NCBI GenBank assembly: GCA_019358915.1
Contig: JAHHIM010000002.1
Location: 1 to 64,000 of the forward strand
Length of the DNA: 64,000 nucleotides
Direction: 5' to 3'
DNA from: Trichormus sp. ATA11-4-KO1
GTDB taxonomy: Bacteria > Cyanobacteriota > Cyanobacteriia > Cyanobacteriales > Nostocaceae
Shown in pieces: positions 3,411 to 54,123 of this stretch. The notes under the pieces are model-generated. The model ran no database searches. It was not told where the DNA came from and saw nothing but the letters and a program-made list of their open reading frames with translations. The position numbers and the translations under genes were made by a program. Numbering within the stretch: the first letter of the stretch is position 1; the number at the start of each line of letters is the position of its first letter.

Positions 3411-3412
3411 AA

Positions 3413-3865
3413 CTATTTGCTAACAGCATCAGGGAGTATTACTATATCTAACCAATAAGTTATGAAACTTTGAATAGTCTCAACTAATCTGTTGATATCG
3501 ATTGGTTTGAGCATATAACTAGCTACGGAAGAGCGATAACATATTTCGATATCTTTAGGATTAGACGAAGTTGTAAATACAACTACGGGAATATATTTGA
3601 AGTCTTCATCTTGCTTAATTTGTTCTAAAACTTCTCTGCCATCAGTTCCTGGTAAATTGAGGTCGAGTAAAATAATCGCCGGACGGGGAGATTTTTGGCT
3701 GCTATAAGCCCCAGTTTGGTAAATGAAGTCTAGCGCCTCATCGCCATCGGTACAGCGAAAGATAGGATTGACAACGGCTTCTCGTTTCATGACTCGACAC
3801 AAAGCTTCAAAGTCTTCGTCGCTATCTTCAATCACCAGTAAAGGTTTAGCAAAATTACCAATCAT
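3413..3865 (-). CDS. rcpB: Phytochrome-associated single-domain response regulator (Rcp type)
   Basis: LLVIEDS...LLDLNLP...FTTSS...KP receiver directly downstream of the phytochrome. Confidence 0.85.
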
Positions 3866-3874
3866 CAGTTCAGT

Positions 3875-14540: not shown

Positions 14541-14548
14541 TATTCCCA

Positions 14549-14884
14549 TCAAATAAATTCAACACGGCTATTCATATCATTTAAATCCAACCACTCCCAG
14601 ATCATAATCAAGCTGCGTATAATGTTGCCTATTGACCGACTACCTTGACTACAGTAGACAATACCAGCGTGCTTAACATTTGCCTGATGTAGACGCAGAA
14701 AGTCTGCATCCTGAGTGAAGATGACTCTACCCTCATTTAGTGCAAACAACACTTGTTCCTCATCTGATACAGAGATGAGTCCTTGTTCAGGGGTGGTAGT
14801 CACATCAATACCACGACGACGCAACCCATCCGCGATCGCATTACTGACATTTTCATCAAGGTGAAATCGAATCGTTCTGAACAT
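14549..14884 (-). CDS. DUF5615 PIN-like protein (putative toxin)
   Basis: FHLDENV...SDEEQV...RVIFTQDADF...HAGIV PIN-like pattern. Confidence 0.85.
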   Translation of the reverse strand: MFRTIRFHLDENVSNAIADGLRRRGIDVTTTPEQGLISVSDEEQVLFALNEGRVIFTQDADFLRLHQANVKHAGIVYCSQGSRSIGNIIRSLIMIWEWLDLNDMNSRVEFI

Positions 14885-15188
14885 TTCGATTTCCTAGTTT
14901 TTGCTGGAGTAGAGAAGGAGTTTGTGCTTGTAACTGTTTAGCAAACTCTTCATCATCTCGAATCTGTTGCCTAATTTCTTCTAGATGATCGTGGTAATAA
15001 GCCAAAGCCGCATACACATCAGCTAAGGTAATGCTGGGATACTGAGAGACTATCTCATCTGAAGACAATCCTAGTCGTTCGTGCCAGATAACAATATCCT
15101 GTACTCGAATTCGATGGCCGACGATATGTGGTTTACCACCACATACATGAGGCGTGATTTCGATGTGTTCAGAAATCACTGATTCCAT
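14856..15188 (-). CDS. DUF433 protein (putative antitoxin)
   Basis: TPHVCGGKPHIVGHRIRV...ITLADVYAALAYY; overlaps the PIN-like gene. Confidence 0.88.
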   Translation of the reverse strand: MESVISEHIEITPHVCGGKPHIVGHRIRVQDIVIWHERLGLSSDEIVSQYPSITLADVYAALAYYHDHLEEIRQQIRDDEEFAKQLQAQTPSLLQQKLGNRNVQNDSISP

Positions 15189-22632: not shown

Positions 22633-23211
22633 CTATGCAAAAATCTGCTGTAAATTTAAAACAAAACCAGGAAGAACATCTTCACCCGATAAACTTGTGG
22701 GAGATTGTAAAAGTTCCGGTGCTTGATTAGGGCGATAAATTATTACTTGTTTATCTTTGGGATTAATTAACCAACCGAGTTGTAAGCCATTTGCTAAATA
22801 TTCTTCCATTTTGGCTTTAGTATCTTCCACATCATCAGTTTCCGAAACTAATTCCACGGCAAAATCAGGACACAAAGGGAGAAATTTCTTTCTTTGTTCT
22901 GCGGTAAGAGCTTCCCATCTTTCTATGCTTACCCAAGAAGCATCAGGTGAACGAGTTGCACCATTTGGTAATTTAAAACCAGTGGAAGAATCAAAAGCTT
23001 TTCCGAGCTTATTTTGTCTGTTCCAAACTCCTAAATCAAGATACAGTTCAAAATTACGGTTTCCCGTTTCTCCACCAGTAGGTGACATGATAATTAATTC
23101 CCCTTCAGCAGTTAACTCTAGCCGTAATTCTTTATTCACGGCGACAATTTGTGCAAATTCCTCATCAGTAAATTTCAGATTAGAAGGTAGTTGTAAGGTT
23201 AAAGCAGTCAT
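22633..23211 (-). CDS. Uma2 (DUF820) family endonuclease
   Basis: FDSSTGFKLPNGATRSPDASW, PDFAVELVS, LGWLINP. Confidence 0.93.
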   Translation of the reverse strand: MTALTLQLPSNLKFTDEEFAQIVAVNKELRLELTAEGELIIMSPTGGETGNRNFELYLDLGVWNRQNKLGKAFDSSTGFKLPNGATRSPDASWVSIERWEALTAEQRKKFLPLCPDFAVELVSETDDVEDTKAKMEEYLANGLQLGWLINPKDKQVIIYRPNQAPELLQSPTSLSGEDVLPGFVLNLQQIFA

Positions 23212-27967: not shown

Positions 27968-28267
27968 TTGCGTTTTCAGTTTAGGAAGAAGAAACTCGAA
28001 GCACTTTACGCAGAAGAAAAAGATGCTCATAAATACCCAGGTGTAGTTGATGACTTTTTTGAAGTCATGGCGATTATTGATGCTGCTGTAGATGAGCGAG
28101 ACTTATACGCTCAAAAAGGGTTGAGATTTGAAAAGCTCAAAGGAAAACGAGGAAAACAAGGACAGCGTTCCTTACGTTTAAATGATCAGTGGCGTTTAAT
28201 CGTGACAGTGGATGAGGATGAGCAAGGAAATTACCTCACAATAATCGACATCGAAGACTATCACTAA
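27968..28267 (+). CDS. higB: HigB-like toxin (RelE/ParE superfamily)
   Basis: FEKLKG.R.GQRSLRLNDQWRL...IEDYH. Confidence 0.9.
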   Translation: MRFQFRKKKLEALYAEEKDAHKYPGVVDDFFEVMAIIDAAVDERDLYAQKGLRFEKLKGKRGKQGQRSLRLNDQWRLIVTVDEDEQGNYLTIIDIEDYH

Positions 28268-28292
28268 CCGAGACAGCAAGAGATACAGCAAT

Positions 28293-29375
28293 ATGAGCCA
28301 GAATTTAGCACCAGCAAGAGTACCAACACCAGGGAAAATTTTAAGTCGAGAATTAGAAGCCCGTGGCTGGACACAGAAAGATTTAGCAGAAATTATGAGT
28401 CGTCCAGTTCAAACTATCAACGAAATTATCCGAGGAAGCAAGCAAATTACACCTGAAACAGCTATCGAATTGTCCCAAGCCTTGGGGACTTCTCCTGAGT
28501 TCTGGACGAACCTCGAAGCTAAGTATCGGTTGCATCTAGCAAGACAAGAAAAAAAGGAGCAAGACATAACCCGTAGAAGCCGATTGTATACTATTGCTCC
28601 TATTTCTGAACTAATCAAAAATGGCTGGATTCAAACAGCAGATTCTATTCATGAATTAGAACAGCAAGTTTGTCATTTTTTCGGTATATCTTCTTTAGAT
28701 GAAACACCCAAATTAGATGTTAATTTCCGTTGTTCAGAGCATCGAGAGCCAGAGCAAGCATCTCGAATAGCTTGGGTGAAGCGAGTAGAAAATCTAGCTA
28801 AACAACAAACCATTGCTAGTTTTGACCGTACAAAACTAGAGGCGGCTATTCCTGAAATTTTAGCTGGTACTGAACAAGTAGAAAGTATTATACAGATTCC
28901 TAAATTACTAGCAGATTTAGGCGTACATTTTGTAATTGTCCCACACTTGAGTAAAACTTATTTAGATGGTGCAGCATTTTATTTAAATGGTAATCCTGTT
29001 GTTGCATTGACATTGAGATATGACCGGATTGACTCATTCTGGTTCACCCTAATGCACGAGTTAGCGCATATTGTTTTAGGACATCAAGGAACTTATTTAG
29101 ACAACTTGGATGCTCTAGAAGAAAATGATGAGGAAATAGAAGCTAATCAAAAAGCGGCAAACTGGTTAATAAATCCTCAGACATTAAATAAATTTATAGT
29201 CAGGAGTAAAAAAGTCTTTTCTCGTAAAGCAATTGAAGAATTTGCTCTTGATCAACACAGACATCCAGGCATTATCCTTGGTCGCTTACATTATGACAAA
29301 TTAGTTCCCCATAAAAACTTAAGATCATTACTCGTCAAAGTTAGTCCCCTGTTGAACAACTGGATTGATAACTAA
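28293..29375 (+). CDS. higA: HigA-type HTH antitoxin fused to an ImmA/IrrE-like metallopeptidase domain
   Basis: PGKILSRELEARGWTQ...FWTNLE HigA HTH; FWFTLMHELAH (HExxH)...EIEAN. Confidence 0.88.
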   Translation: MSQNLAPARVPTPGKILSRELEARGWTQKDLAEIMSRPVQTINEIIRGSKQITPETAIELSQALGTSPEFWTNLEAKYRLHLARQEKKEQDITRRSRLYTIAPISELIKNGWIQTADSIHELEQQVCHFFGISSLDETPKLDVNFRCSEHREPEQASRIAWVKRVENLAKQQTIASFDRTKLEAAIPEILAGTEQVESIIQIPKLLADLGVHFVIVPHLSKTYLDGAAFYLNGNPVVALTLRYDRIDSFWFTLMHELAHIVLGHQGTYLDNLDALEENDEEIEANQKAANWLINPQTLNKFIVRSKKVFSRKAIEEFALDQHRHPGIILGRLHYDKLVPHKNLRSLLVKVSPLLNNWIDN

Positions 29376-38544: not shown

Positions 38545-39009
38545 TGAAATTACAGCAAAGAGCCAGATTTTGCCGTGATGATTTCGGGTAGCATAGAATA
38601 TACCAAAATTTCAGAACTCTAGCTTTCTCTAGAATAAGTGCTACAGGTTTACTTCTTTTGCTGATTATTTTTTGGTGCGATCGCAATTTTATGAGAGTAA
38701 TCGCTTTTGGGTCTACCTCCTTTATTAGATAGCTAGTTATCCAATGCTAAATATTGTTGATGGGGTTTGTTCTTCCCGCTCCCTGGTTTGGGTGGAAGTG
38801 TGACCAGCAAAGACAAGCCGCCCCTCACGTATACCTTCAACCCTACCTTCCCAACCCTCAGGCGATCGCACAATTCATATCGTGATTCAGCAACGCCCAA
38901 TTGGGGGTAATTTAGCATAATAATATTAGTACTATAAATCGCAAGATTGAAACTATTGAAAACCCTGTAAAAAGCCAAAAACACGAGGGATTGGGGGTTT
39001 TGGATTGAA

Positions 39010-39081
39010 AGCCAGCAGTCGGATTTGAACCGACGACCTTCCGATTACAAGTCGGATGCACTACCACTGTGCTATGCTGGC
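39010..39081 (-). tRNA. tRNA-Thr(UGU)
   Basis: GCCAGCA acceptor; TCCGA-CTTGTAA-TCGGA anticodon arm; GGTTCAAATCC. Confidence 0.96.
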
Positions 39082-39408
39082 GAATATGGTTATTGCTTGC
39101 AAACGTTAACCGAATTCCCATTGTAACATAATAAATTTAACTGTCTACTGTCAACTACAAAAACTATTGATATTCTGATCTGAGAACGTATGGATGGTTG
39201 AGTGACGCATACAAGCGTCATGAAGCCGAAAAAAAATTAGTGATTTTATTTACTGGTAAAGTTGATAAATTAATATTCATAGCAAAAGCTAATTCAAATC
39301 CTGGACTGGACACAAAAATATTGGGTACAGGTTGAAAACTGTACTTTTTTTTGACCCAGCTAGGTAAAGGAACAGAAATCGCTCATTGTTCTTTACAGAT
39401 TCGGAAGC

Positions 39409-40329
39409 ATGGCAGCGTTGATAGGACGAGATTTATTAGGTCTGGCTGACCTCAGTCCCAGGGAACTTCAAGAACTCCTGCAATTAGCAACCCAACTCAA
39501 ATCACAACAGTTGAAGTTGCATTGCCATCAGGTATTGGGTTTGTTGTTTTCTAAAGCTTCAACTCGCACGCGAGTCAGTTTTACTGTGGCAATGTATCAA
39601 CTGGGTGGACAGGTAATTGACCTCAACCCCAATGTCACTCAAGTTAGTCGAGGGGAACCTATTCAGGATACAGCGCGGGTCTTGGATCGATATCTAGATA
39701 TTTTGGCAATTCGCACCTTTGCACAGCAGGAGTTAGAGACTTTTGCCGACTATGCCAAAATTCCTGTAATTAATGCCCTAACCGATTTGGAACATCCCTG
39801 TCAGGTATTAGCTGATTTATTGACAATTCAAGAATGCTTTGGTAAGCTTGCAGGCTTAACTTTGACCTACGTAGGTGATGGCAATAATGTGGCTAATTCT
39901 CTCATGTTAGGTTGTGCTTTAGTGGGTATGAATGTGAGAATTGCTACCCCTAATGGATATGAGCCAAATGCTGGCATTGTAGAACAAGCACGAGTAATTG
40001 CTAACAATAAAACCGAAGTTCTCCTCACTCATGACCCAGAATTAGCAGCTAAGGGATCTGCTGTGCTTTATACCGATGTCTGGGCTAGTATGGGACAGGA
40101 AACAGAAGCAGACGATCGCCTGCCAATTTTTCAACCTTACCAAATTTCCGAACAATTATTAAGTCTTGCTGAACCAGAGGCAATTGTTTTACACTGCTTA
40201 CCAGCCCATCGTGGTGAAGAAATTACTGAGGCAGTCATCGAAGGTTCTCAGTCACGAGTTTGGCAACAAGCGGAAAATCGCTTACATGCTCAAAAAGCTT
40301 TACTTGCCAGTATTTTAGGGGCAGAGTAA
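39409..40329 (+). CDS. argF: Ornithine carbamoyltransferase
   Basis: STRTR, HPCQ, DVWASMG, HCLP motifs. Confidence 0.97.
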   Translation: MAALIGRDLLGLADLSPRELQELLQLATQLKSQQLKLHCHQVLGLLFSKASTRTRVSFTVAMYQLGGQVIDLNPNVTQVSRGEPIQDTARVLDRYLDILAIRTFAQQELETFADYAKIPVINALTDLEHPCQVLADLLTIQECFGKLAGLTLTYVGDGNNVANSLMLGCALVGMNVRIATPNGYEPNAGIVEQARVIANNKTEVLLTHDPELAAKGSAVLYTDVWASMGQETEADDRLPIFQPYQISEQLLSLAEPEAIVLHCLPAHRGEEITEAVIEGSQSRVWQQAENRLHAQKALLASILGAE

Positions 40330-40416: not shown

Positions 40417-40430
40417 AGTACTAATGTTCT
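40417..40430. promoter_or_regulatory. LexA box upstream of lexA
   Basis: AGTACTAATGTTCT matches the cyanobacterial consensus RGTACNNNDGTWCB. Confidence 0.88.
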
Positions 40431-40462
40431 AGAGACATTTGTATTTACTTCCCGATAGATTT

Positions 40463-41068
40463 ATGGAACGTCTAACAGAAGCTCAACAAGAACTTTATGA
40501 TTGGTTAGTAGAATACATCCGTATTCATCAGCATTCGCCTTCAATTCGGCAAATGATGCAAGCGATGAATTTGAAATCACCTGCACCGATTCAAAGTCGT
40601 TTAGATCATTTACGGACTAAAGGATATATTGAGTGGAACGAAGGCAAAGCGCGAACAATTCGGATTTTGCATCCTGTTAAGCAAGGTATCCCAATTTTAG
40701 GCACAATCGCTGCTGGGGGTTTAATAGAACCATTTACTGATGCTGTAGATCATTTAGACTTTTCTAATATTTCATTACCTTCCCAAAGCTATGCTTTACG
40801 AGTAGCTGGCGATAGCATGATTGAAGATTTAATTGCCGATGGCGATTTAGTATTTCTACGTCCAGTACCAGAACCAGATCAGTTAAAAAATGGCACAATC
40901 GTCGCTGCTAGAGTTGATGGCTACGGTACTACATTAAAACGTTTTTATCGCCAAGGCGATCGCGTGATCCTCAAACCTGCCAATCCTAAATACAACCCCA
41001 TTGAGGTACTGGCGATGCAAGTGCAGGTACAGGGTTCCTTAGTTGGGGTTTGGCGAGATTACAACTGA
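40463..41068 (+). CDS. lexA: LexA repressor (start ATG 40463)
   Basis: LTEAQQE...PSIRQM HTH; IAAG cleavage site; GDSM serine and TLKR lysine of the S24 dyad. Confidence 0.96.
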   Translation: MERLTEAQQELYDWLVEYIRIHQHSPSIRQMMQAMNLKSPAPIQSRLDHLRTKGYIEWNEGKARTIRILHPVKQGIPILGTIAAGGLIEPFTDAVDHLDFSNISLPSQSYALRVAGDSMIEDLIADGDLVFLRPVPEPDQLKNGTIVAARVDGYGTTLKRFYRQGDRVILKPANPKYNPIEVLAMQVQVQGSLVGVWRDYN

Positions 41069-41138
41069 ATGGGGATTGGGGGAAGAAGCAGGGGGGAAGC
41101 AACTTCTCTGATACCCAATAACTAATAACTAATGACTA

Positions 41139-42614
41139 ATGACTAATTATTTAGTGCAGCAACAGCCTAGTTTTAGGTTGAAATTTCCATTTGCTAGGGA
41201 AGGCAAAAGCAGTTATCAGACTCGTCAACCATTACCAGGATGTCCAAGTGTGCCTGTATCTCTGCAATTGCGGCAGTATCAGCGACAAGCTATTACTAGC
41301 TGGTTTGCCAATAATGGCAGAGGTACGCTGAAAATGGCTACTGGTAGTGGTAAAACTATCACAGCATTAGCGATCGCTTGTGAATTATATCAGCAAATTA
41401 ATTTACAAGTGTTGTTGGTGGTGTGTCCTTATCGTCATCTTGTCACCCAATGGGCGCGGGAATGTGAGAAGTTTAATTTACAACCTATTTTAGCTTTCGA
41501 GAATTTACGCACTTGGCAAAGTCAACTGTCTACGCAACTTTATAATCTGCGTTCCGGTTCGCAAAACTTTGTCACTGTGATTACTACCAACTCGACATTA
41601 ATTAATGATGGGTTTCAGTCGCAACTTAAGTATTTTCCCCCGAAAACTTTAATTATTGGTGATGAAGCGCATAATTTAGGTGCACCAAAATTAGAAGAAA
41701 ATTTACCGCGCCGTGTAGGATTGCGCCTGGCTTTATCTGCCACACCGGAGAGGTATTTTGATGATTACGGTACTCAATCTTTATTTAATTATTTTGGCCC
41801 GGTTCTTCAACCAGAGTTTACCTTGAGGGATGCGATCGCTCAAGGGGCTTTGGTACATTATTTGTATTATCCAATACTTGTAGAATTAACTGAGGCGGAA
41901 AGTATTGCTTATTTAAAGTTAACTAAAAAAATTGGGCGATGTTTATTATATCGAGAACGAGAAAATAGCGAAGTAGGAAACTTTGAAGACAACGAAGATT
42001 TAAAGCCTTTATTAATGCAACGCGCCAGGTTAATTGGTGCGGCGGAAAATAAATTAACTGCTTTGCGAGATTTAATGGCTACTCGCCGGGAAACTACTCA
42101 CACACTTTTTTATTGCAGCGATGGTTCTCAAGAAACTGGACAACGTTCATCTTTGCGTCAACTCAAAGCTGTTGCCAAAATTTTGGGAGTAGATTTGGGA
42201 TATCGGGTAAGTACCTATACTGCACATACTTCTTTAAAAGAACGAGAAGTTTTACGCTGTCAATTTGAAAGTGGTGAACTACAAGGTTTAGTGGCAATTC
42301 GCTGTTTAGATGAAGGCGTTGATATTCCCGCAGTTAAAACTGCGGTAATTTTATCCAGTTCTGGTAATCCTCGCCAGTTTATTCAGCGCCGAGGTCGAGT
42401 TTTACGTCCTCACATGGGTAAGGAACGCGCCACTATATTTGACATGATTGTTTTGCCACCAGATTTAGATCGGGAAACTATAGAAGTGGAACGCAATTTA
42501 TTAAAAAAAGAATTGCGCCGCTTTGTGGAGTTTGCCGATTTAGCTGACAACGCCGGCGAAGCCAGAATGAAATTACTGGATTTACAAAAACGTTATGGAT
42601 TATTAGATATTTGA
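41139..42614 (+). CDS. SF2 DEAH helicase (phosphorothioation-associated restriction enzyme-like, XPB/Res-like)
   Basis: MATGSGKT, DEAH, SATP, DEGVDIP, QRRGRVLR; no nuclease domain recognised. Confidence 0.85.
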   Translation: MTNYLVQQQPSFRLKFPFAREGKSSYQTRQPLPGCPSVPVSLQLRQYQRQAITSWFANNGRGTLKMATGSGKTITALAIACELYQQINLQVLLVVCPYRHLVTQWARECEKFNLQPILAFENLRTWQSQLSTQLYNLRSGSQNFVTVITTNSTLINDGFQSQLKYFPPKTLIIGDEAHNLGAPKLEENLPRRVGLRLALSATPERYFDDYGTQSLFNYFGPVLQPEFTLRDAIAQGALVHYLYYPILVELTEAESIAYLKLTKKIGRCLLYRERENSEVGNFEDNEDLKPLLMQRARLIGAAENKLTALRDLMATRRETTHTLFYCSDGSQETGQRSSLRQLKAVAKILGVDLGYRVSTYTAHTSLKEREVLRCQFESGELQGLVAIRCLDEGVDIPAVKTAVILSSSGNPRQFIQRRGRVLRPHMGKERATIFDMIVLPPDLDRETIEVERNLLKKELRRFVEFADLADNAGEARMKLLDLQKRYGLLDI

Positions 42615-42957
42615 TAAACAGAAAATAGCAAAGAAGGTAGAAAATAAAAGTTTTATATGTATTTTTTTATTAAAAATGTATTAATTATCAGTTGATATGG
42701 GAAAATATAATTATGAATTTGATCATAATGGGGTGTAGCTTGCTTTAAAAATTTATGTTACACTTCATTGTAATAAAAGCCTAATATTTAAAATACCAGA
42801 AAAAACTTTAAAAAGAAAGCTTTTTTTCAAAGAAATTTGAGTATTTCCAAAGACACTTTACTAAAACATAAAGATAACGCTAATAGTAACTCTACGGATG
42901 CAGATATAGCAGTAGAGACGGCTAAAATAGAAAGAAAACTTGATTTAAAAGCCTGAA

Positions 42958-43131
42958 ATGCCACTAGAGACAAATATCGAGAATGTGCAAGAACCAATTA
43001 CCAGTGCGCCACCAGAAGTGCGACAAATTATTGAGCGAGTATGGAAGTTGGAAAAAGGTAGGTTAGATAAGAAAATTAACAGCCACATTAATGAAGAAAT
43101 ATTAGACATTGTGAAGGAAGAGGTGCAATGA
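42958..43131 (+). CDS. 57-aa small protein coupled to the ATPase (not in the ORF track)
   Basis: Hand translation MPLETNIENVQEPITSAPPEVRQIIERVWKLEKGRLDKKINSHINEEILDIVKEEVQ; ATGA overlap with 43128. Confidence 0.8.
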   Translation: MPLETNIENVQEPITSAPPEVRQIIERVWKLEKGRLDKKINSHINEEILDIVKEEVQ

Positions 43132-45200
43132 AACTAACTTCAATTAAGCTGTGCAATTTTCGCTCCTTTTATGGTATAACTCCAGAAATCATCCTGGCTG
43201 TGGGAGATGTTCACAACACCACAATTATTCATGGCAATAATGGTTCTGGTAAAACCAGTTTGTTGAATGCTTTTACTTGGGTATTATATGAAAAATTTAG
43301 TGCGGCTTTTGCCTCCACAGAACAGCTAGTTAATAAGCGGTCAATAGCCGAAGCGCAAAAAGGTCAAGCTGTGGAATGTTGGGTAGAAGTTGGCTGGGAA
43401 CATGAAGGTAAACGCTATCGTGTCAAACGTTCCTGTCGGGTTTACAAAAATGAAAGTGACTTTGAAGCCGGCAAAACTCAGTTAAGTATGTGGGTAGGTG
43501 AAGATGATGGCAAATGGTATTTACCACCACAACAACCAGACGATATCATTAATCAAATTTTACCTGCGAGTTTACATCAATATTTTTTCTTTGACGGTGA
43601 ACGGATTGAAGAAATAGTTCGTTCTGACAAAAAAGCTGAAATTGCTGAAGCAACTAAAATTTTCTTAGGTGTAGAAGTTATTAACCGTTCTATTAGACAC
43701 TTAGGAGAAGCTAAAAAAACTTTAGAAAATGAATTAAAAGCTATTGGTGATGCAGAAACAAAACAGCTACTAAGACAGCAAGAAAAAATAGAAAAAGAAA
43801 GCGATCGCATCACTAAGCGACAAGTAGAAATTAAACAAGAATTAGAATATCAGCAGACATTTAAAAAAGAGACAAGTAACCGCTTGTTAGAGCTTATGTC
43901 TGCCAAAGACCTGCAAGAAAGATGGCAGGATTTAGAATTACAGAAAGCAGAAAATCAGCAAGCATATAAGAAAAATAAAGAAGCACTGAAAAAAATAATT
44001 TCTGCACGGGGTTACACAGTGTTGCTTTCAGAGACTACATCTCAATTTCGGGAAATTATTGATACTTTAAAGCAGCAAGGTGAGTTAACATCGGGAATTT
44101 CGCGGGAATTTGTCAATGAATTATTGCAATCTCAGCGCTGTATTTGTGGTGCTGATTTAAGGACAGGAACTCCCAACCATGAGCATATACAAGCTTGGCT
44201 AAATAAAGCAGGTTCTTCGTTAGTAGAAGAAACAGCAATCCGTATGGGTGTCCAAGTAGATGAAATTGATAAACAAGCTACGATTTTTTGGGAAGAAGTT
44301 GATAGAGAACAAGAGAGAATTAATCAGTTAAGACAAACCATATCCCAGGTTGAGGGTGAATTAGATAGCCTTCAAGAAAAACTGCGAAAAGATGCCAATG
44401 AAGAAATTAGCAGTTTACAAAAACGCTTAGATGGAATTGAAAAGAAAATTGATGAATTGAATCGAGAACAAGGTGCAAATCAACAACAACTTGTTCATTT
44501 AAAAACAGATATTGATGCTTTAGGCAAACAAATTTCCAAGCAGAAACTGAATGAAGAAAAACAAATATTAGCACAGCGCCGCATCAATGCTACTCAAGAT
44601 GCCATTGAAAGGTTAACAGAAGTTCGGAATCGTCAAGAAACACAATTCCGTCTGCAATTAGAAAAGCGAGTACAAGAAATATTTAATGATATTTCGGTGA
44701 CTCCATATATTCCTAAAATTAGCGATAAATATGAATTAACATTGGTAGAACATACGGCTGGTATAGAAGCACCTGTTGCAGCTTCTACAGGAGAAAATCA
44801 AATTCTCAGTTTATCTTTTATTGCTAGCATCATTGATAAGGTGCGGGAATGGAGTGAAAAGCGCAAAATGATGATGCTTCCCGACAGCAGCACTTTCCCA
44901 ATAGTCATGGATTCACCGTTTGGGAGTTTGGATGAAATTTCTCGACGACACATAGCCGGGACAATTCCCAAATTAGCAAATCAGTTAATTGTGTTAGTAA
45001 CTAAAACTCAGTGGCGGGGTGAAGTGGAAGAGGAAATGGCAAACAGAATTGGTAGGGAATATGTACTTACCTATTACTCTTCTAAGTTAGATTGTGAACA
45101 AGATTATATTGAGTTGGGAGGGGAAAGATTTCCTTTGGTGCGGCAAAGTCCCAATGCGTTTGAGTATACCGAAATTATTGCAGTAGAACGACATATTTAA
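43128..45200 (+). CDS. Rad50/DndD-like coiled-coil ABC ATPase with CxC hook
   Basis: GNNGSGKT Walker A, FFFDGE, long coiled coils around CICG, ASTGE signature, IVMDSPFGSLD Walker B/D-loop. Confidence 0.88.
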   Translation: MKLTSIKLCNFRSFYGITPEIILAVGDVHNTTIIHGNNGSGKTSLLNAFTWVLYEKFSAAFASTEQLVNKRSIAEAQKGQAVECWVEVGWEHEGKRYRVKRSCRVYKNESDFEAGKTQLSMWVGEDDGKWYLPPQQPDDIINQILPASLHQYFFFDGERIEEIVRSDKKAEIAEATKIFLGVEVINRSIRHLGEAKKTLENELKAIGDAETKQLLRQQEKIEKESDRITKRQVEIKQELEYQQTFKKETSNRLLELMSAKDLQERWQDLELQKAENQQAYKKNKEALKKIISARGYTVLLSETTSQFREIIDTLKQQGELTSGISREFVNELLQSQRCICGADLRTGTPNHEHIQAWLNKAGSSLVEETAIRMGVQVDEIDKQATIFWEEVDREQERINQLRQTISQVEGELDSLQEKLRKDANEEISSLQKRLDGIEKKIDELNREQGANQQQLVHLKTDIDALGKQISKQKLNEEKQILAQRRINATQDAIERLTEVRNRQETQFRLQLEKRVQEIFNDISVTPYIPKISDKYELTLVEHTAGIEAPVAASTGENQILSLSFIASIIDKVREWSEKRKMMMLPDSSTFPIVMDSPFGSLDEISRRHIAGTIPKLANQLIVLVTKTQWRGEVEEEMANRIGREYVLTYYSSKLDCEQDYIELGGERFPLVRQSPNAFEYTEIIAVERHI

Positions 45201-45220
45201 TAAATGGCGTTGCTATGTGA

Positions 45221-45471
45221 CAATACCTTAGCCAATTTACGAGGGTGAGATGATGATGCTTTAACCATTAACTCCCATTTCTCGCTCGGCTTGGCAACAA
45301 CAATCAGCCATAAAAATTCCTTTAAGGTTTCCCACAAGGGTTTTTTAACGTATTGACAGCAGGATAAGGGTTTGGGATGACAAACTACCTTTTTATCGAA
45401 ACGCTTATGTATGCTTATTTTTGCCAGTTTTGCCAAAAATTATCAAGGCTCTTATTTTGGCTAAGGTATTG
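45221..45471. mobile_element. 251-bp MITE (CAATAC-ended, IS4-like) with 7-bp target duplication
   Basis: Perfect 15-bp TIR CAATACCTTAGCCAA; TATGTGA at 45214-45220 and 45472-45478. Confidence 0.9.
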
Positions 45472-45720
45472 TATGTGAAAGTATGAATTAGTTCAAAGGG
45501 TGACAATAGTTGCAAAACCAAGCTAGATAAAGGTTTGGACGATACAGATCCCTGGAATAAACAGACTGAAATTGAATGCTGATTGAGAATGAACTGTCAC
45601 ATCGTGATTTCTGGATAGGTTTGTATGGTTTCAATTGGATAGTAACTTGGAATGAGTGTCAAGCATGGGTCAAGTTCCTTGACAGTTCCATTTGCAATAC
45701 TTACGTATTGATTGGTGGGG

Positions 45721-47250: not shown

Positions 47251-47300
47251 AAGCGCGCGATCGCAGGTTGACACAGCAGAAATATTCGGTGGTGTCACAG

Positions 47301-47392
47301 TAGACATCTCCAGAAATTAAATATGCGTTATCCAGAAACCTTGTAGAGACGTAGCAGTGCTACATCTCTACATTCTTTTTCCAAGACGTCTA
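47301..47392. mobile_element. 92-bp miniature element with nested palindromic repeat
   Basis: TAGACATCTCCAGAAA / TTTTCCAAGACGTCTA inverted ends; internal GTAGAGACGTAGCA-TGCTACATCTCTAC hairpin. Confidence 0.6.
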
Positions 47393-48291: not shown

Positions 48292-48565
48292 CCAATTTTA
48301 AACATCTTTGGCAAAACTAAACATACATTGTTTTTTGATGGTGACTTATGGACGATACCAGAAATGAGACAATCAAAAAAACTCAAAAATTTTGAGAAGT
48401 AAAAAATGTCTTTAATATCAGAAGCAAAAATTAAAAATATAGATCACCTAGGAATAGTAGCTGGGCTAATTGATGAAATAGGAATATGAGTCTTAATCAT
48501 CCTGATTTTTTGCTATTCTCTTGATGTAATCTCTTTGTACTTCAATTTGAAGTGCGGAATGTGGG
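48292..48565 (+). mobile_element. Internally deleted IS1634-family element
   Basis: 27-aa ORF 48406-48489 with IDHLGIVAGLIDEIG (IS1634/DUF4277 N-terminus); TGCGGAATGTGGG right end; left boundary approximate. Confidence 0.7.
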
Positions 48566-48694
48566 TTAATAGAAACCAACTGTGGAAGCTTTACAGCCAA
48601 TAGCAGTGCTGACAGTACGTGATAGTGATACTACGAGAGAATAGGCTTTCTAAACTTTACGTCTTACGTCAGGGAGATATTTGGCTGTAATGTA

Positions 48695-48842: not shown

Positions 48843-49712
48843 TTATGCTGGTTTCAATTTCAACTTGACCCAGATGAAAACGGCAACAAAGAACAAAAAC
48901 TGGACAAGAACAATACTAGGCCCTGATGCCAGATTGAAAAGACCAGAAACGATGATGCCAGACATACTTGTAGTGGCACCAACTATCAATGACACGAACA
49001 GAAAACGGTTAAAGTGATGACTCATCAGTTTGGCTGTGGAGGCGGGAATCACCAAAAAGGCATTTACCAGTAAAACACCGACAGCTTTAATTGCCACGGC
49101 AACAGCTAGTGAAAGCAAAATCACAAACCCATACCGATACAATTGAACTGGAATACCTTGTACTTGCGCTACATCGGGGTTAAGCGTCAATAAAATTTGC
49201 TGTCGCAGGGTTGATAGTAAAAATATGCTACTTCCTACCAATACAACCAGCGTCAACATCAAATCTGTTGCGTCGATCGCTAAAATATCACCGAACAGCA
49301 CTCTCATCAAGTTGCCGCGATAACCCTGAACTAAGCTAGTAAGTATCACACCAAGGGCTAATGCTCCCGATAGCACTATACTCAGAACGCTATCGCTAGC
49401 TAAATCGGTTTTGTCAATAAAGTACAGGACAATCACACCGAAAACTAAGGTAAAAGGCAACAGCATCCAAGTTGGATTTAACTGTAGTAACACACCTAAA
49501 ACTACGCCTACTAATGCTGCATGACCAACAGCATGACTAAAAAAAGATAGCTGGCGCAAGGTAACAAAACTACCAAGTAAACCCCCAAGTATTCCCATTA
49601 ACACAGCGCCTGCGATCGCTCTTTGCATGAAGGGAAATTGTAACAAATTCACTAAGTCCATACTAGTAGTGATAACTAGCCAATTTATCTGACAACTAAA
49701 GCACAAAGACAT
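48843..49712 (-). CDS. znuB: Zn/Mn ABC transporter permease (start may be ATG 49661)
   Basis: FMQRA...SHAVGHAAL.G...LFGDIL...VGVLLV. Confidence 0.88.
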   Translation of the reverse strand: MSLCFSCQINWLVITTSMDLVNLLQFPFMQRAIAGAVLMGILGGLLGSFVTLRQLSFFSHAVGHAALVGVVLGVLLQLNPTWMLLPFTLVFGVIVLYFIDKTDLASDSVLSIVLSGALALGVILTSLVQGYRGNLMRVLFGDILAIDATDLMLTLVVLVGSSIFLLSTLRQQILLTLNPDVAQVQGIPVQLYRYGFVILLSLAVAVAIKAVGVLLVNAFLVIPASTAKLMSHHFNRFLFVSLIVGATTSMSGIIVSGLFNLASGPSIVLVQFLFFVAVFIWVKLKLKPA

Positions 49713-49898
49713 AAGTTCAATTTACACACGAAACCAAGTAATTGTAATATATTTTTTTAGCTTGATTATATTAATAATAGGCAAAGTTTTAGAAATGTAA
49801 ATTTAAAAGCCAGTAATTTTTACTGTAATTAAATTTGATTATCAAAACACATACTGATTGAGTATAATTTAAGATAGATAACTATAAATAACGATATT

Positions 49899-50210
49899 GT
49901 GCAACACCTAGCAGATCAAGTTCTCAGCAGCGAAAAAGCTCAACGCATGGCAGAATTTTTTAGTTTCTTAGGAGATGCTAATCGCTTACGAATTCTTTCT
50001 TTTTTGGCTAAGAAAGAACTATGTGTTAGTGATTTAGCAGCATTACTAGATATGAGTGAATCTGCTGTTTCTCATCAGCTACGCAACTTAAGAGTAATGC
50101 GCTTGGTTGGCTATCGTAAGCAAGGTCGTAATGTGTTCTATCACCTCCACGATAATCATATCTTCCATCTTTATCAGGCTGTGGCTGAACATTTAGATGA
50201 ACCTGAATAA
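49899..50210 (+). CDS. ArsR/SmtB family Zn-sensing repressor
   Basis: ELCVSDLA...SAVSHQLR; alpha5 site DNH-x10-HLDE. Confidence 0.9.
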
Positions 50211-50222
50211 GCAAGTCGCCAC

Positions 50223-50257
50223 GTCAAAAGTAAAAGCAATATTTATTTACTTTTGAC
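50223..50257. terminator. Hairpin between convergent smtB-like gene and znuC
   Basis: GTCAAAAGTAAA ... TTTACTTTTGAC 12-bp stem. Confidence 0.55.
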
Positions 50258-50352
50258 TTTTAAGTTATCTCAAATAGAGATAGATAAAATCGTTGGCAAT
50301 TACTGGAACAATCTTTTAGTCAAGAGTTTTCATCTCAAATCCCAACTTGCTA

Positions 50353-51123
50353 TTAGTGACGATGTCGATAGGGACTAAAACCAAGGCCGTAGGTTGCTAA
50401 GAGGTTTTGGGGGGAAAGCGCAATTTCTGGCTGACCAGTACAAACAACGGTTTGATTGAGGCAAAGCACGCGATCGCATTGGCGACTCACCATATCAATA
50501 TCATGAGAAACCTGTAACACTGTCCAACCCTCCTCCCGTTTTAACTCGTGGAGTAAAGCATAAAAATCTGCTGTACCTTGCACATCAACCCCAGCAAAAG
50601 CTTCATCTAATATCAACAATCTCCGAGGAATTACTAAACAATAAGCTAGTAATACCCGCTTCAATTGACCGCCGCTAAGAGTACCAATAGCTTGATGTCG
50701 CAGATGATAAGCATCAGTTCGCCGTAAAGCTTCCGCTATTGCTACTAATTTTTTCGGATCTCGTTTCCATAACTTGCTAAAAAACGAATTCTGCTTTTTA
50801 CTTTCATTTGCCCATCCCAGTCCTACCAATTCACCTACAGAAATCGGAAAACTGCGGTCAAAAATGAAATTTTGGGGCATATAGCCCAAGCGGTAACGCA
50901 ATTTCCCTAGCTTGGTAATTGGGAGACCAAATATTTCAATAGTGCCAGCACTGCGGGGAATCAAATCTAAAATCGCTTTTACCAAAGTACTCTTACCCGC
51001 ACCATTGGGGCCAACTATGGCTGTATCTGTTCCTGGCAACAATTCAAAAGAAATATCTCGAACAGCTAAATAACTGCCTTGATATACATTTAATCCCTCT
51101 ACTTTTAAAATGGGCGATGTCAT
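50353..51123 (-). CDS. znuC: Zn/Mn ABC transporter ATP-binding protein
   Basis: GPNGAGKS, LSGGQ, SHD; His-rich tail. Confidence 0.88.
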   Translation of the reverse strand: MTSPILKVEGLNVYQGSYLAVRDISFELLPGTDTAIVGPNGAGKSTLVKAILDLIPRSAGTIEIFGLPITKLGKLRYRLGYMPQNFIFDRSFPISVGELVGLGWANESKKQNSFFSKLWKRDPKKLVAIAEALRRTDAYHLRHQAIGTLSGGQLKRVLLAYCLVIPRRLLILDEAFAGVDVQGTADFYALLHELKREEGWTVLQVSHDIDMVSRQCDRVLCLNQTVVCTGQPEIALSPQNLLATYGLGFSPYRHRH

Positions 51124-51214
51124 TAGTCCTGGATTATTAGTAATTTGTAATTAGTAATCGGTCATAACCTGAGAACAAACGATCAAGAAGATATCGCTGC
51201 CTTTAACATCTAAA

Positions 51215-52237
51215 CTAATTACATCCAGTCTCCAGGGTTTGCAAGTTAGCTTTCATCGCCTGGAAGTAATACTGTGGATTTGTCTCACCAGTTTCTAAAG
51301 AATTCAAAGTCCGCACAGTTACATTCAAGTCTTGGGAAAGACTGGTTAATAATTTATCATCCACCCCTGGTTCGCTAAACAACGCTTTAACGTTGTACTT
51401 TTTCACGGCATTGATTGCTTTTTGCACATCTGCTGGCGACAGTTGATCTTCAGGAATTTGCACCACAGCAACTTGTTTCAGATTGTAGCGCTGAGCTAAA
51501 TATGGAAAAGCATCATGAAAGGTAATAAAGGTACAGTTAGGAGTTTTCTGTAAAGTTTGCTGAAATTCGTTATTTAAACTTTCTAATTCCTGAATAAAAG
51601 TCGCAGCATTTGCTTCATACGTAGCTTTATTAGCAGGATCAGCAGCAATTAATCCGTCCCGAATATTTGTGACCTGCTGTTTTGCCAAAACTGGATCTAA
51701 CCAAACGTGAGGATTTCCGTCTGCATGATCATGGCTATGACCGTGGCTATGGCCTTTTGCTGCTATTTTATCAACAGGTGAAATTTCATTTAATGGTTTA
51801 ATACCTTCACTGGCATCAATTTCAGTTAATTTGGGATTCTGGGCATTTTTTACAGTGTTTTCTAAAAATTCTTCCAACCCCAGACCATTTTTCACCAAGA
51901 CACTTGCTGTGGCGATCGCTTTTACATTCTCTGGTGTCGCTTGGTAATCATGTACTTCCGTACTCGGTGGCACTAAAATTGATACATCTGCCGCATCACC
52001 AGCTACAGCTTTGGTAAATAAATACGTTGGCAAAATCGTCGCCACCACTTTAGTTTTTTCTTGAGAGGCTGGACTCGAAGCCGCCTCTTGTGCTTGGGGT
52101 GACTGTTCACCAGTTCTTGCCAAATTTGTGTTGGATTGGTTACAGCCAACAGCTACCGCCAATGTAAACAAAGTCACGACAAACAACACGTTCTTTCTTT
52201 GTCTGCTTGATCTAAGTCCTAAAAGATTCCCAATCAC
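51215..52237 (-). CDS. znuA: Zn/Mn ABC transporter lipoprotein
   Basis: VGC lipobox; EVHDY, His-rich loop, NPHVWLDP, FHDAF. Confidence 0.9.
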   Translation of the reverse strand: MIGNLLGLRSSRQRKNVLFVVTLFTLAVAVGCNQSNTNLARTGEQSPQAQEAASSPASQEKTKVVATILPTYLFTKAVAGDAADVSILVPPSTEVHDYQATPENVKAIATASVLVKNGLGLEEFLENTVKNAQNPKLTEIDASEGIKPLNEISPVDKIAAKGHSHGHSHDHADGNPHVWLDPVLAKQQVTNIRDGLIAADPANKATYEANAATFIQELESLNNEFQQTLQKTPNCTFITFHDAFPYLAQRYNLKQVAVVQIPEDQLSPADVQKAINAVKKYNVKALFSEPGVDDKLLTSLSQDLNVTVRTLNSLETGETNPQYYFQAMKANLQTLETGCN

Positions 52238-52508
52238 AGTTTTTCTCCTCTAACCCTAATACTTGCTCTGCCTTGGTCAAAATTTTTATTGACGATGACA
52301 GTAGCTTTATATTGTAGAATAAGTCTCATTCTCACACAATACTGTAAAAATAGCTTTTTGTATAAAAAACAACTTACTTATCACTTAGCCTATGAATAAT
52401 AATTGCTTAACTTTTAGTGTTAAAAAAATTGCGCGCTACTGTTAATATCTTTTTTAAGAAAATGTGTTCTCAAAAAACTCGGTGTGAGTGTAGCTATCCA
52501 TAAATTAA

Positions 52509-52517
52509 GTGTGAGGA
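52509..52517 (+). promoter_or_regulatory. Putative Yfr1 sRNA target site in the porin 5' UTR
   Basis: GTGTGAGGA is complementary to the Yfr1 motif ACUCCUCACAC and overlaps the RBS; partial GTGTGAG at 52482-52488. Confidence 0.6.
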
Positions 52518-52521
52518 AAAA

Positions 52522-54123
52522 ATGCAAGAGTTAGGAAAATATTTACTAGCTAGTCCAGTATTTTGCGGCACTATGCTATTGTTTAATGCTGCTGTTTTTG
52601 CAGGTGAAATATCCACAACATCGGTAATAAATCAGCCTTTAACTATAGATAATTCAGAGACAAAAGCTCAGGTAATGGCGCAAATTACCTCAGTTTCTCA
52701 GTTATCAGACGTACAACCTACAGATTGGGCTTTCCAAGCATTGCAGTCGTTGGTAGAGCGTTACGGTTGTATTGCTGGGTATCCCAATACCACTTATCGT
52801 GGTAACCGCGCACTGACAAGATATGAATTTGCAGCTGGTTTCAATGCTTGTCTTGATCGGGTTAACGAGCTAATTGCCACAGCCACTGGCGATGTTATAA
52901 GACAACAAGATTTAGCGCAACTGCAAAGACTACAAGAAGAATTTGCCGCAGAACTAGCTACACTTAGAGGCCGTGTGGATGCACTAGAAGCACGCACATC
53001 TGAACTGGAAGCGAATCAATTTTCTACTACTACCAAATTGCAAGGAGAAGTTGTCACAGTTATCAGTGATGTTTTAGGTGGCAACAGAGTTAACAATCAA
53101 AACATTACAGACAAGAATACAACTCTAGGGGTGCGGGCACGAGTTGAGTTTGTCACCAGTTTTACAGGGAGAGACACCTTGTTTACGAGAATCCAAGCCA
53201 ATAATATTCTCAGCCCTAACATTGGTACACCAGAAGGTAACTTATTCTTCGCTGGTGAGGATGGTAATACTAATGCGGAAATAGATGCATTATTTTACGA
53301 ATTTCCTTTGGGTGCAAGAACACAAGTAATTGCGATCGCCAATGCAGGTGCAGCAGATGACATCACTGATACCGTAAATATCTTTGACGGTGATGGCAGT
53401 TCTGGTGCTCTATCTACTTTTGGTACACGCAACCCCATCTATAACCAGATGGATGGTGCAGGGTTGGGAATCACCCATGAATTCAGTGATAGATTGGCAC
53501 TAAGTCTGGGGTATTTGAGTGGTTCAGCTAATGACCCTGCTCCCAAGAATGGTTTGTTTGATGGTGCATACGGTGCGCTGGCACAGTTGACAGTGAGACC
53601 AAGCGATCGCATTGCTGTAGGCTTAACTTATATCCATTCTTACAGACAGCCACTACTTACGGGTAGCAATGCAGCAACCTTTGCTCCCTTGGATTTAGAT
53701 GATGATGGTACAATAGATTCCGCCTTTTCCAGCAATTCCTACGGTATCCAAGCATCTATTGGCATCAGTGAAAGATTAGTCTTAGGTGGTTGGGCTGGAT
53801 ATACAACTAGTCGCACCTTAAGTGGAAACCGTGGAGATATTGATATTTGGAATTATGCCATCACTCTCGGCTTCCCTGACCTTGGTAAAAAAGGTAATTT
53901 AGCTGGAATTATTGCTGGTGTAGAACCTAGAGTGACAAGTTCCAGCGTCGCCGGATTAAGTAGAGATAGAGATACTTCCTATCATCTTGAGGCATTCTAC
54001 CAGTACCAGCTGACTGACAATATCACTATTACCCCAGGTATCATTTGGCTGACATCCCCAGACCATAACAACAACAACGATGATGTTGTTATCGGTGCGT
54101 TAAGAACTACATTCAGTTTTTAA
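52522..54123 (+). CDS. SLH-domain / OprB-type cyanobacterial porin
   Basis: SVSQLSDVQPTDWAFQALQSLVERYGC SLH, QFSTTTKL, terminal RTTFSF. Confidence 0.95.
   Translation: MQELGKYLLASPVFCGTMLLFNAAVFAGEISTTSVINQPLTIDNSETKAQVMAQITSVSQLSDVQPTDWAFQALQSLVERYGCIAGYPNTTYRGNRALTRYEFAAGFNACLDRVNELIATATGDVIRQQDLAQLQRLQEEFAAELATLRGRVDALEARTSELEANQFSTTTKLQGEVVTVISDVLGGNRVNNQNITDKNTTLGVRARVEFVTSFTGRDTLFTRIQANNILSPNIGTPEGNLFFAGEDGNTNAEIDALFYEFPLGARTQVIAIANAGAADDITDTVNIFDGDGSSGALSTFGTRNPIYNQMDGAGLGITHEFSDRLALSLGYLSGSANDPAPKNGLFDGAYGALAQLTVRPSDRIAVGLTYIHSYRQPLLTGSNAATFAPLDLDDDGTIDSAFSSNSYGIQASIGISERLVLGGWAGYTTSRTLSGNRGDIDIWNYAITLGFPDLGKKGNLAGIIAGVEPRVTSSSVAGLSRDRDTSYHLEAFYQYQLTDNITITPGIIWLTSPDHNNNNDDVVIGALRTTFSF

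Follow-up and report, generated by a model that had tools for sequence, protein, structure and literature searches.

The stretch of DNA considered in this work (the window) consists of 64,000 nucleotides (nt) of contig JAHHIM010000002.1 from the cyanobacterium Trichormus sp. ATA11-4-KO1, and its element of interest is a set of three genes located downstream of lexA, which encode a helicase, a small protein and a coiled-coil ATPase (Table 1). Judged from their sequences, these genes are almost certainly pbeA, pbeB and pbeC, which make up the front half of a DndBCDE-PbeABCD phosphorothioate (PT) system. This system is complete but split, its other genes being found on another contig (C1) of the same genome. 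In functional terms, the reading that we favour by a small degree is that this front half of a split Dnd-Pbe system is a likely non-cutting, ATP-driven scanner, which stalls unmodified invading DNA.

Identification of the pbeA, pbeB and pbeC genes

A sequence-only reading of this region had described a LexA box, lexA, a gap of 70 bp, a DEAH helicase, an open reading frame (ORF) for 57 amino acids (aa) and a 690-aa ATPase with a CICG hook, all on one strand; all of these features are present, but the gap of 343 bp between the helicase and the small ORF was overlooked in it. The same reading had linked the classes of the helicase and the ATPase to phosphorothioation, and this is borne out by the profile searches. 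The best PADLOC family for the helicase is PbeA (E 1.9e-164), and the model TIGR04095 is covered in its entirety with a score of 672 bits (cut-off 600). The Walker A, DEAH, SAT, LDEG and QRRGR motifs are all present in this protein, and its closest named relatives are almost all from Nostocaceae. For the ATPase, the best PADLOC family is PbeC (1181 bits). The possibility that this protein is DndD was rejected, as its score with the DndD model TIGR03185 (172 bits) is below the cut-off of 246 and it contains the CxC motif, whereas the true dndD on C1, which scores 729 bits with this model, lacks CxC. The hook of PbeC is formed by C338-x-C340, and CxC is present in all 34 non-DndD rows of the alignment examined. 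The ASTGE signature of this protein, which had been regarded as degenerate, is instead the norm for the family, S553 being invariant and T554-G555-E556 at least 90% conserved in 35 rows. A two-lobed head and long coiled coils, with the CxC hook placed between long helices, are seen in its predicted structure (pLDDT 82.6, pTM 0.56), and its best matches among solved structures, by both fold and sequence, are with Rad50.

The 57-aa protein showed no match in searches with hidden Markov model profiles from PADLOC, TIGR and Pfam, and in the ESM Atlas it matched only unnamed cyanobacterial clusters. It is named PbeB because of its position and its conservation, the identity over 30 orthologues being 39-91%. 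The pbeB gene abuts pbeC in 78 of 78 loci, and the same layout is seen in systems where the helicase carries an HKD nuclease domain. In a model of the PbeB-PbeC complex the score was 0.60 (best control 0.00), the contacts agreed to at least 86% between runs and the partner pLDDT was at least 73. Of the solved complexes, 116 of 157 come up to the mark set for such models, as do 2 of 215 mismatches, and among those reaching it, 18 solved complexes and both of the mismatches score 0.60 or less; the model thus gives weak support to a predicted binding of PbeB to PbeC. In PMC10853773, PbeA is described as a fusion of an HKD nuclease with an SF2 helicase, PbeB as a small protein, PbeC as an ABC ATPase with a CxC hook and PbeD as a cognate of DndE.

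Location of the remaining genes of the system

A genome-wide search for dnd genes, as proposed in the sequence-only reading, located dndC, dndD, dndE and DndB-like genes on contig C1. The genes present at C1:214432-225690, all of them without internal stops, are pbeD (TIGR04062), two DGQHR/DndB-like genes, dndC, a Uma2 gene (PADLOC PDC-S03) between dndC and dndD, dndD, dndE and a gene for a dnd-linked putative methyltransferase (TIGR04096). The matches for DndC, DndD, DndE, TIGR04062 and TIGR04096 are all over their cut-offs. The pbeD gene (C1:225229-225690, 153 aa) matches TIGR04062 with 196 bits; it had no PADLOC match to PbeD and no BLASTP match to DndE, and the name is used because of its position in relatives, its size and its co-occurrence with the other genes. 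No cysteine desulfurase is encoded in the dnd cluster, and a motif for the pyridoxal phosphate site of these enzymes occurs in three ORFs elsewhere, without confirmation by a profile. TIGR03238 (dnd_assoc_3) had no match in the genome, and as the controls were also silent, this result does not speak to the absence of DndFGH-type genes.

The usual gene order in relatives is argF-lexA-pbeA-pbeB-pbeC, a set of variable genes, and then pbeD, the DGQHR genes, dndC, dndD, dndE and the methyltransferase gene. In Trichormus sp. ATA11-4-KO1, the pbeABC locus and the C1 cluster are more than 110 kb apart whichever way C1 and C2 are joined. For the 80 closest loci, the fetched flank contains pbeD behind pbeC in 63 of 78 cases and lacks it in 8, and 7 cases could not be assigned. 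By hand count, pbeC and pbeD are less than 10 kb apart in 28 of 56 carriers from different genera, contig breaks explaining some of the others, and in 6 carriers they are more than 100 kb apart on one contig, indicating that the split is tolerated. The locus is likewise split in a same-genus relative, where the flanking genes are different, and due to this the miniature inverted-repeat transposable element (MITE) found behind pbeC is not shown to be the cause of the split. Thus, of the earlier suggestion that this is the retained half of a Dnd locus whose distal genes were replaced, the half-locus stands, whereas replacement does not, as the dnd genes have moved and are intact on C1. In one genome (G036, L058:4429 to L059:2464), about 16 kb of inserted genes lie between pbeB and pbeC, the sole case of this kind among the mapped loci.

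One of the DGQHR/DndB-like proteins, of 532 aa (C1:221727-223325; L038:15728-17326), was considered as a replacement effector or an obligate partner and rejected. In the class sample its gene, divergent from dndC, is present in 10 of 11 genomes of the order Cyanobacteriales (hereafter the order) and in none of the 130 other genomes; it is found in 51 of 60 relatives and missing in 5 which retain the system, and the alignment of the protein looks DndB-like throughout its length. In genome G051 (C1:683962-693138 of that genome), inserts of several kb divide the long DGQHR gene into three pieces.

Co-occurrence with the dnd genes

The sample of 151 genomes from the order overlaps the set of 60 relatives, and the kin within them are not independent. 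Among the 60 relatives, PbeC, DndC and TIGR04062 are each present in the same 56 genomes and all three are lacking in the same four; PbeA is found in 55, and in the additional genome where it is missed pbeBC lies at a contig edge. In the order sample, both PbeC and DndC are present in 119 genomes, neither in 21, only PbeC in nine and only DndC in two. PbeC is thus found in 128 of the 151 genomes, and the losses are by whole genera. The nine genomes with PbeC only are all drafts of 130-250 contigs, and six of them have DndD over the cut-off. The other three (G225, G264 and G248, the last with a split pbeA) have pbeA and pbeC, no DndC match and no DndD over the cut-off. Two genomes of the order contain DndC and DndD without matches to PbeA or PbeC. 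The three genes mostly travel with dnd, and this is the case in Trichormus sp. ATA11-4-KO1. The option of a three-component module independent of modification, raised in the sequence-only reading, is at odds with the intact pbeD and dnd genes on C1 and with the presence of DndC alongside PbeC in 56 of 56 and 119 of 128 carriers.

Loss of the nuclease domain of PbeA in the order

PbeA matches only positions 240-681 of the 682 positions of the PADLOC profile, the N-terminal HKD/PLD nuclease domain having been lost. Positions 1-237 of the profile had no match anywhere in the genome, and neither did a profile made from 13 cyanobacterial HKD domains. No detached HKD gene was found in 42 of 64 genomes of the order, this one included; the matches that were obtained lay nearly all within long frames of other proteins. 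The strongest HKD matches in the order belong to second HKD-helicase modules in genomes G058 and G055 and to a fragment in G049. The second modules, each a divergent HKD-helicase with an ATPase, are inserted within the native dnd locus (L047:3969-8627 and L214:4992-8877, respectively) and are about 25-35% identical to the native proteins, the ATPase of G055 being in pieces.

The native PbeA proteins from the order are all short (457-548 aa in 42 aligned proteins) and form one clade, with SH-aLRT support of 99 in a quick tree (55 rows, 42 in the clade) and of 98 in a FastTree tree (41 rows, 29 in the clade), the latter constructed after omitting a long-branch outgroup and 13 Nostocaceae rows; neither tree was bootstrapped. 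In the class-wide sample, PbeA is present in 10 of 11 genomes of the order versus 15 of 130 others, and DndC is not over the cut-off in 9 of these 15. The 15 proteins from outside the order comprise 11 complete long forms (704-758 aa), one independently short form, two cut by contig ends and one truncated; hence 11 of 12 complete orthologues keep the nuclease domain. The N-terminal domain of the long forms contains YHEK and GSANES, the strict HxKxxxxD motif is unmatched, and Pfam PLDc_2 matches two homologous domains. The independently short form (G137, L076:3682-5073) is from a genome with no DndC match and no DndD over the cut-off. In another genome (G037, L122:3273-7339), an element which codes for a group II intron reverse transcriptase/maturase with HNH interrupts pbeA.

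As the short and long forms are divided along taxonomic lines, the simplest interpretation is that the domain was lost once, at the base of the order, and on the sequences the link between nuclease loss and fixation would rest on one event. A decaying truncation was rejected, since the short form is order-wide and the helicase motifs are intact. The ratios of nonsynonymous to synonymous substitutions (dN/dS; Nei-Gojobori, four relatives) are 0.05-0.10 for pbeA, 0.09-0.16 for pbeB and 0.08-0.12 for pbeC, with 0.06-0.08 for argF and 0.04-0.11 for lexA as controls; versus the same-genus relative, the values for the three genes are 0.05-0.11. As judged by these values, the genes are under purifying selection and are not decaying, contrary to what would be seen for a retained half in decay (range for the three genes 0.05-0.16).

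Linkage to lexA and transcription of the genes

The protein encoded by lexA matches TIGR00498 with 205 bits (cut-off 111) as well as Pfam LexA_DNA_bind and Peptidase_S24. The 14-mer AGTACTAATGTTCT upstream of it is identical to the box of lexA (alr4908) in Nostoc PCC 7120 (PMC3091678). A LexA box with at most one mismatch is located 43-52 nt 5' of lexA in 35 of 35 loci, and in all of them pbeA is found directly behind lexA, 17-466 bp away and with no gene in between. These loci are from 34 members of the family and from G052, three further carriers of the family having been omitted for contig breaks; the bare consensus of the box gives 92 strand-hits genome-wide. In the 80 closest loci, which do not include PCC 7120, pbeA follows lexA in 76 of 77 cases, and the single exception is an artefact caused by a weak second match. 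The argF gene adjoins lexA in 34 of the 35 loci. In contrast, of 34 resolved loci from different genera, 14 have pbeA and pbeB separated, versus 1 of 78 close loci.

The AT-rich gap between pbeA and pbeB contains a conserved -10-like hexamer (TAAAAT, TAAGAT or TAGAAT at -31 to -41 of pbeB in 20 of 26 relatives, by hand count). No LexA box was found in this gap, nor before pbeB, pbeD or dndC in this genome; of 22 genomes of the order in which a short pbeA is not behind lexA, 0 have the box before it, against a background of 45 in 579 windows, and in a further set outside the lexA-linked lineage the box precedes pbeA in 1 of 12 cases. A scan for promoters and terminators gave promoters at chance level (21 versus 15.7 +/- 4.2), and the hairpin predicted in the lexA-pbeA gap is modest (-18.7 kcal/mol) and lacks a U-tract.

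In the published transcript map of PCC 7120 (PMC10287535), argF is its own unit (TU03344), TU03346, 'lexA-[alr4909]', extends 470 nt beyond lexA into alr4909, and TU03348, which has its own transcription start site and is 660 nt long, comprises a 174-nt ORF together with the first part of alr4911. The mapped start is 21 nt 5' of this ORF, and after nitrogen removal the unit shows a modest increase (0.62 and 1.28 being the values listed). We read the brackets in 'lexA-[alr4909]' as partial coverage, a notation which the text examined does not define. The distance from the start of lexA to the small ORF is 2531 nt in PCC 7120 versus 2495 in ATA11-4-KO1, and dndD is nearby in PCC 7120; based on this, we infer from position and size that the genes in question are pbeA, pbeB and pbeC. 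An older operon prediction lists alr4908 alone (PMC3091678), and Anabaena LexA is described as a global regulator beyond its role as an SOS repressor in bioRxiv 2022.07.04.498681. Due to the lack of a LexA box at pbeBC and the separate start of pbeBC in PCC 7120, it is likely that LexA controls the helicase only, and only in the lexA-linked lineage, and from its upstream sequence pbeBC appears to have its own promoter. Hence, the proposed linkage to lexA holds for pbeA, but SOS wiring probably does not extend to all three genes.

Nuclease genes around the locus

Variable nuclease-like genes, as identified by Pfam, lie between pbeC, pbeD and dndC in many relatives. One of them, for an HNH nuclease of about 320 aa, is present in 32 of the 80 close loci (L128-L207), often beside pbeD, and occurs beside HKD-bearing systems as well; it has no match in this genome. 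Further copies were noted at L068:11195-12160 and L060:11942-12886. The N-terminal part of this protein presumably resembles sulfur-binding winged helix-turn-helix domains. The Pbe locus thus attracts nucleases, as seen from the HNH gene and from the second HKD-helicase modules of G058 and G055. Uma2-like genes occur at about 24 loci in this genome.

Other features of the window

The coordinates of the locus are listed in Table 1. DndC, DndD, DndE and pbeD had no match inside the window; the earlier statement that the window has neither dnd genes nor a nuclease holds for DndC and DndE, but a Uma2 putative nuclease is encoded far upstream (22636-23211). The name of the argF-like gene is one that we assume from features of its sequence. 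The MITE, of which 6 near-identical full-length copies are present across the genome, occupies the point where many relatives run on towards pbeD and dnd, and the genes past it (TetR, polyketide-cyclase-like, YgaP-like and DNA alkylation repair) are unrelated. It is the only such element directly behind the ATPase gene; the other short repeated elements, which had also been placed there, lie at about 47298-47390 and 48485-48567.

Table 1. Features of the lexA-pbeABC locus in the window
Feature	Position	Strand	Remarks
argF-like ornithine carbamoyltransferase gene	39409-40329	+	conserved upstream neighbour, outside the system
LexA box AGTACTAATGTTCT	40417-40430	+	46 nt 5' of lexA ATG
lexA	40463-41068	+	201 aa counted from ATG; in-frame TTG at 40439
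pbeA, SF2 (ResIII-type) DEAH helicase, 491 aa	41139-42614	+	PADLOC PbeA, TIGR04095
Predicted -10 element TAAAAT of separate pbeBC promoter	42923-42928	+	35 nt 5' of pbeB ATG
pbeB, small protein, 57 aa	42958-43131	+	stop overlaps pbeC start
pbeC, CxC-clade Rad50-like coiled-coil ABC ATPase, 690 aa	43128-45200	+	PADLOC PbeC
MITE, 253 bp, 24-nt terminal inverted repeats	45220-45472	no strand	starts 19 bp past pbeC stop

Elsewhere, the window contains a row of genes for a phytochrome histidine kinase, a response regulator and a multi-PAS hybrid kinase (330-6127), a split IS630-like transposase (HTH_32, DDE_3) beside a DUF433/DUF5615 pair (13576-15188), a HigB-like toxin gene followed by a gene for an HTH and IrrE-like peptidase (M78) protein (27968-29375), a segment 5' of argF which looks tRNA-like by its translation pattern alone (38912-39121), and genes for zinc-type ABC uptake alongside those for an ArsR regulator and an OprB porin (48843-54123).

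Possible function and alternative explanations

Function as a non-cutting, PT-reading scanner is, in our analysis, an evenly balanced proposition. By this mechanism, DndC, DndD and DndE along with a housekeeping cysteine desulfurase would put sulfur marks on host DNA, and a dimer of PbeC, which the CxC zinc hook would hold shut, would bind PbeB and PbeD (the DndE-type DNA-binding partner encoded at the other locus) and read the mark. The PbeA helicase would then be recruited and would translocate on or remodel the DNA, blocking rather than cutting in the absence of a nuclease, and cutting would come only from an optional nuclease in trans. The pbeBC genes would be expressed from their own promoter and pbeA by read-through from the autoregulated lexA promoter, with LexA setting the dose of the helicase under stress. 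The mechanism is suggested because of the PT-dependent archaeal experiments, in which no cleavage was seen, and the attraction of nucleases to the locus. In these experiments, as reported in PMC6459918, archaeal PbeABCD cut SNJ1 plaques about 10^4-fold, PT was needed and viral DNA was uncleaved, and pbeBCD without pbeA retained low resistance.

Several observations weigh against this scanner. PbeC is kept in 85-93% of the genomes of the order, nearly always as a single copy and with an argF-like dN/dS, and such retention and selection are atypical of defence genes. As neither an HKD domain nor the HNH gene is matched in this genome, it has no obvious effector, and 9 of the 128 PbeC carriers are without a DndC match, three of these also without DndD over the cut-off. 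Adjacency to lexA alone proves little, because argF-lexA is equally conserved yet separately transcribed. The lexA unit of PCC 7120 ends a few hundred bases into the helicase gene, in a map where the gene identities are from position and size and the sampled conditions were without DNA damage. Further, the archaeal PbeA which was tested carries a PLD domain (PMC6459918), and HKD cleavage is argued to belong to the mechanism (PMC10853773).

Much of the same evidence can be interpreted differently if nuclease-free PbeABCD is a domesticated housekeeping arm which acts on modified DNA of the host itself, LexA control raising the level of the helicase. In its variants, the system would be a second scanning motor, which places or renews marks (PT or those of the dnd-linked methyltransferase), or it would process oxidised PT sites and the breaks that result from them. 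We regard this as possible, though clearly less probable than the scanner. It accords with the near-fixation of one short-PbeA clade (PbeC in 128 of 151 genomes) versus the patchy HKD-bearing orthologues (15 of 130), with dN/dS equal to that of argF and lexA and with Rad50 as the best fold match of PbeC; PT oxidation leads to strand breaks and a repair or replacement step was proposed but not identified (PMC6435447), and dnd is vertically inherited in Cyanobacteriales without DndFGH (PMC8569181). However, SOS control does not extend to short PbeA in general, as the box is lacking in all 22 genomes outside the lexA-linked lineage, and none precedes pbeB, pbeD or dndC here; the system is not essential, since 21 of 151 genomes have lost it outright, DndC and DndD occur in two genomes which have no PbeA or PbeC matches, and no repair phenotype is reported in the literature seen. 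Still more tentative is the extended form of this view, a single domestication of an anti-phage system at the base of the order, in the course of which PbeA shed its nuclease, Dnd-Pbe became near-core and the lexA promoter captured the helicase in heterocyst-formers, PbeABCD repairing or renewing oxidised PT sites.

The other explanations are improbable to different degrees. If PbeABCD scans the DNA and licenses a separately encoded, exchangeable nuclease (HNH, Uma2, PIN or GIY-YIG) in place of HKD cutting, the variable nuclease-like genes of the locus, the HNH gene of the close loci and the Uma2 gene between dndC and dndD would be accounted for. However, no single nuclease is common to all carriers, the HNH gene is also beside HKD-bearing systems and unmatched in this genome, and with some 24 Uma2-like loci one copy is weak evidence; we consider this unlikely. 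A modification-independent, SOS-wired DNA-sensing defence module of three genes and of the Lamassu type is more unlikely again. The layout of effector, small protein and ATPase would suit it, as would the LmuACB structures in the fold search (E 8e-11 and 4e-10), the genomes G225, G264 and G248, the 9 of 15 carriers outside the order without DndC over the cut-off and the solitary pbeAC genes which are common elsewhere according to PMC6459918; but this genome has a whole dnd cluster with pbeD, the best PADLOC families are PbeA and PbeC, and pbeBC lacks a LexA box and likely has its own promoter. Least probable, to the point of being very nearly dismissed, is that the genes are a decaying remnant left after dnd was displaced by MITEs and cargo. 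The MITE 19 bp past pbeC, the unrelated TetR, cyclase and alkylation-repair genes beyond it and the truncated helicase could give this impression; however, the motifs are intact and typical of the family, dN/dS versus the same-genus relative is low, the truncation is order-wide and the dnd genes are intact elsewhere.

Significance

If domestication is correct, PbeABCD would be the missing machine that repairs or renews oxidised PT sites of the chromosome in cells which produce oxygen, in the order which is the largest among bloom-forming, nitrogen-fixing cyanobacteria. Two further points would be important if they are borne out. Cyanobacterial dnd clusters have been called orphan, i.e. lacking a restriction arm, and used as an argument for an antioxidant origin of PT; they are nearly always accompanied by a nuclease-free PbeABCD, and orthologues outside the order keep the nuclease. 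PMC6459918 and PMC10853773 disagree on DNA cleavage in Pbe defence, and helicases about 70% identical with and without HKD provide a natural pair for deciding whether cleavage is needed. With the fixed lexA-pbeA junction, a role in stress or repair becomes open to testing in Nostoc PCC 7120. Window-based scans will continue to flag such fragments as solitary, since the locus is frequently split.

Comparison with known systems

The PbeABCD system itself is already published. No paper was found on the order-wide loss of HKD, on the lexA-pbeA junction or on Pbe as a regular partner of cyanobacterial dnd, although the supplements of PMC10853773, PMC6459918 and PMC8569181 may list such loci. The DndCDEA-PbeABCD system of Haloterrigena jeotgali A29 (PMC6459918) shares with the present one the PbeA helicase, the PbeC ATPase and the genome-level partnership with dndCDE, and its small proteins are of similar size (PbeB 66 aa versus 57 here; PbeD 152 aa versus 153). 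It differs in that PbeA here is without PLD/HKD, pbeD is on another contig and pbeA is behind lexA; further, its pbe genes form one transcript, whereas they appear here as at least three units. With the CxC ABC-ATPase/DndE-cognate system of PMC10853773, there are in common the CxC zinc hook, the position as a sister clade of DndD, the small protein, the occurrence in tandem with a DndD-DndE system and the extra nucleases in the neighbourhood. However, in that account HKD is fused to the helicase in the vast majority of cases, and the present PbeA is therefore a variant rather than a canonical member; the small protein is called rapidly evolving there, whereas pbeB here is under purifying selection. 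The words 'cyanobacteria' and 'LexA' do not occur in the available text of that paper. TIGR04095 is named 'DNA phosphorothioation system restriction enzyme', which implies a nuclease, whereas the helicase here has no nuclease domain.

With Lamassu (LmuABC) and Rad50/SbcC, PbeC shares the coiled-coil ABC ATPase fold, at 10-14% sequence identity, and its likeness to Lamassu is weaker than that to Rad50. There is no Lmu family among the best 25 of 68 PADLOC matches for the ATPase, and neither an Mre11/SbcD-type nor an LmuA-type effector beside pbeC. The earlier comparison with Lamassu is thus sound for the fold, but not for membership of the system, the best PADLOC families being PbeA and PbeC. 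The dnd genes of Cyanobacteriales (PMC8569181) show, as here, vertical inheritance and varied and broken operon layouts, and are reported to be without DndFGH. The conclusion in the available text of that paper, where 'pbe' is unmentioned, is that PT restriction components are absent from cyanobacteria, whereas in the genomes examined here PbeABCD travels with dndC in most cases.

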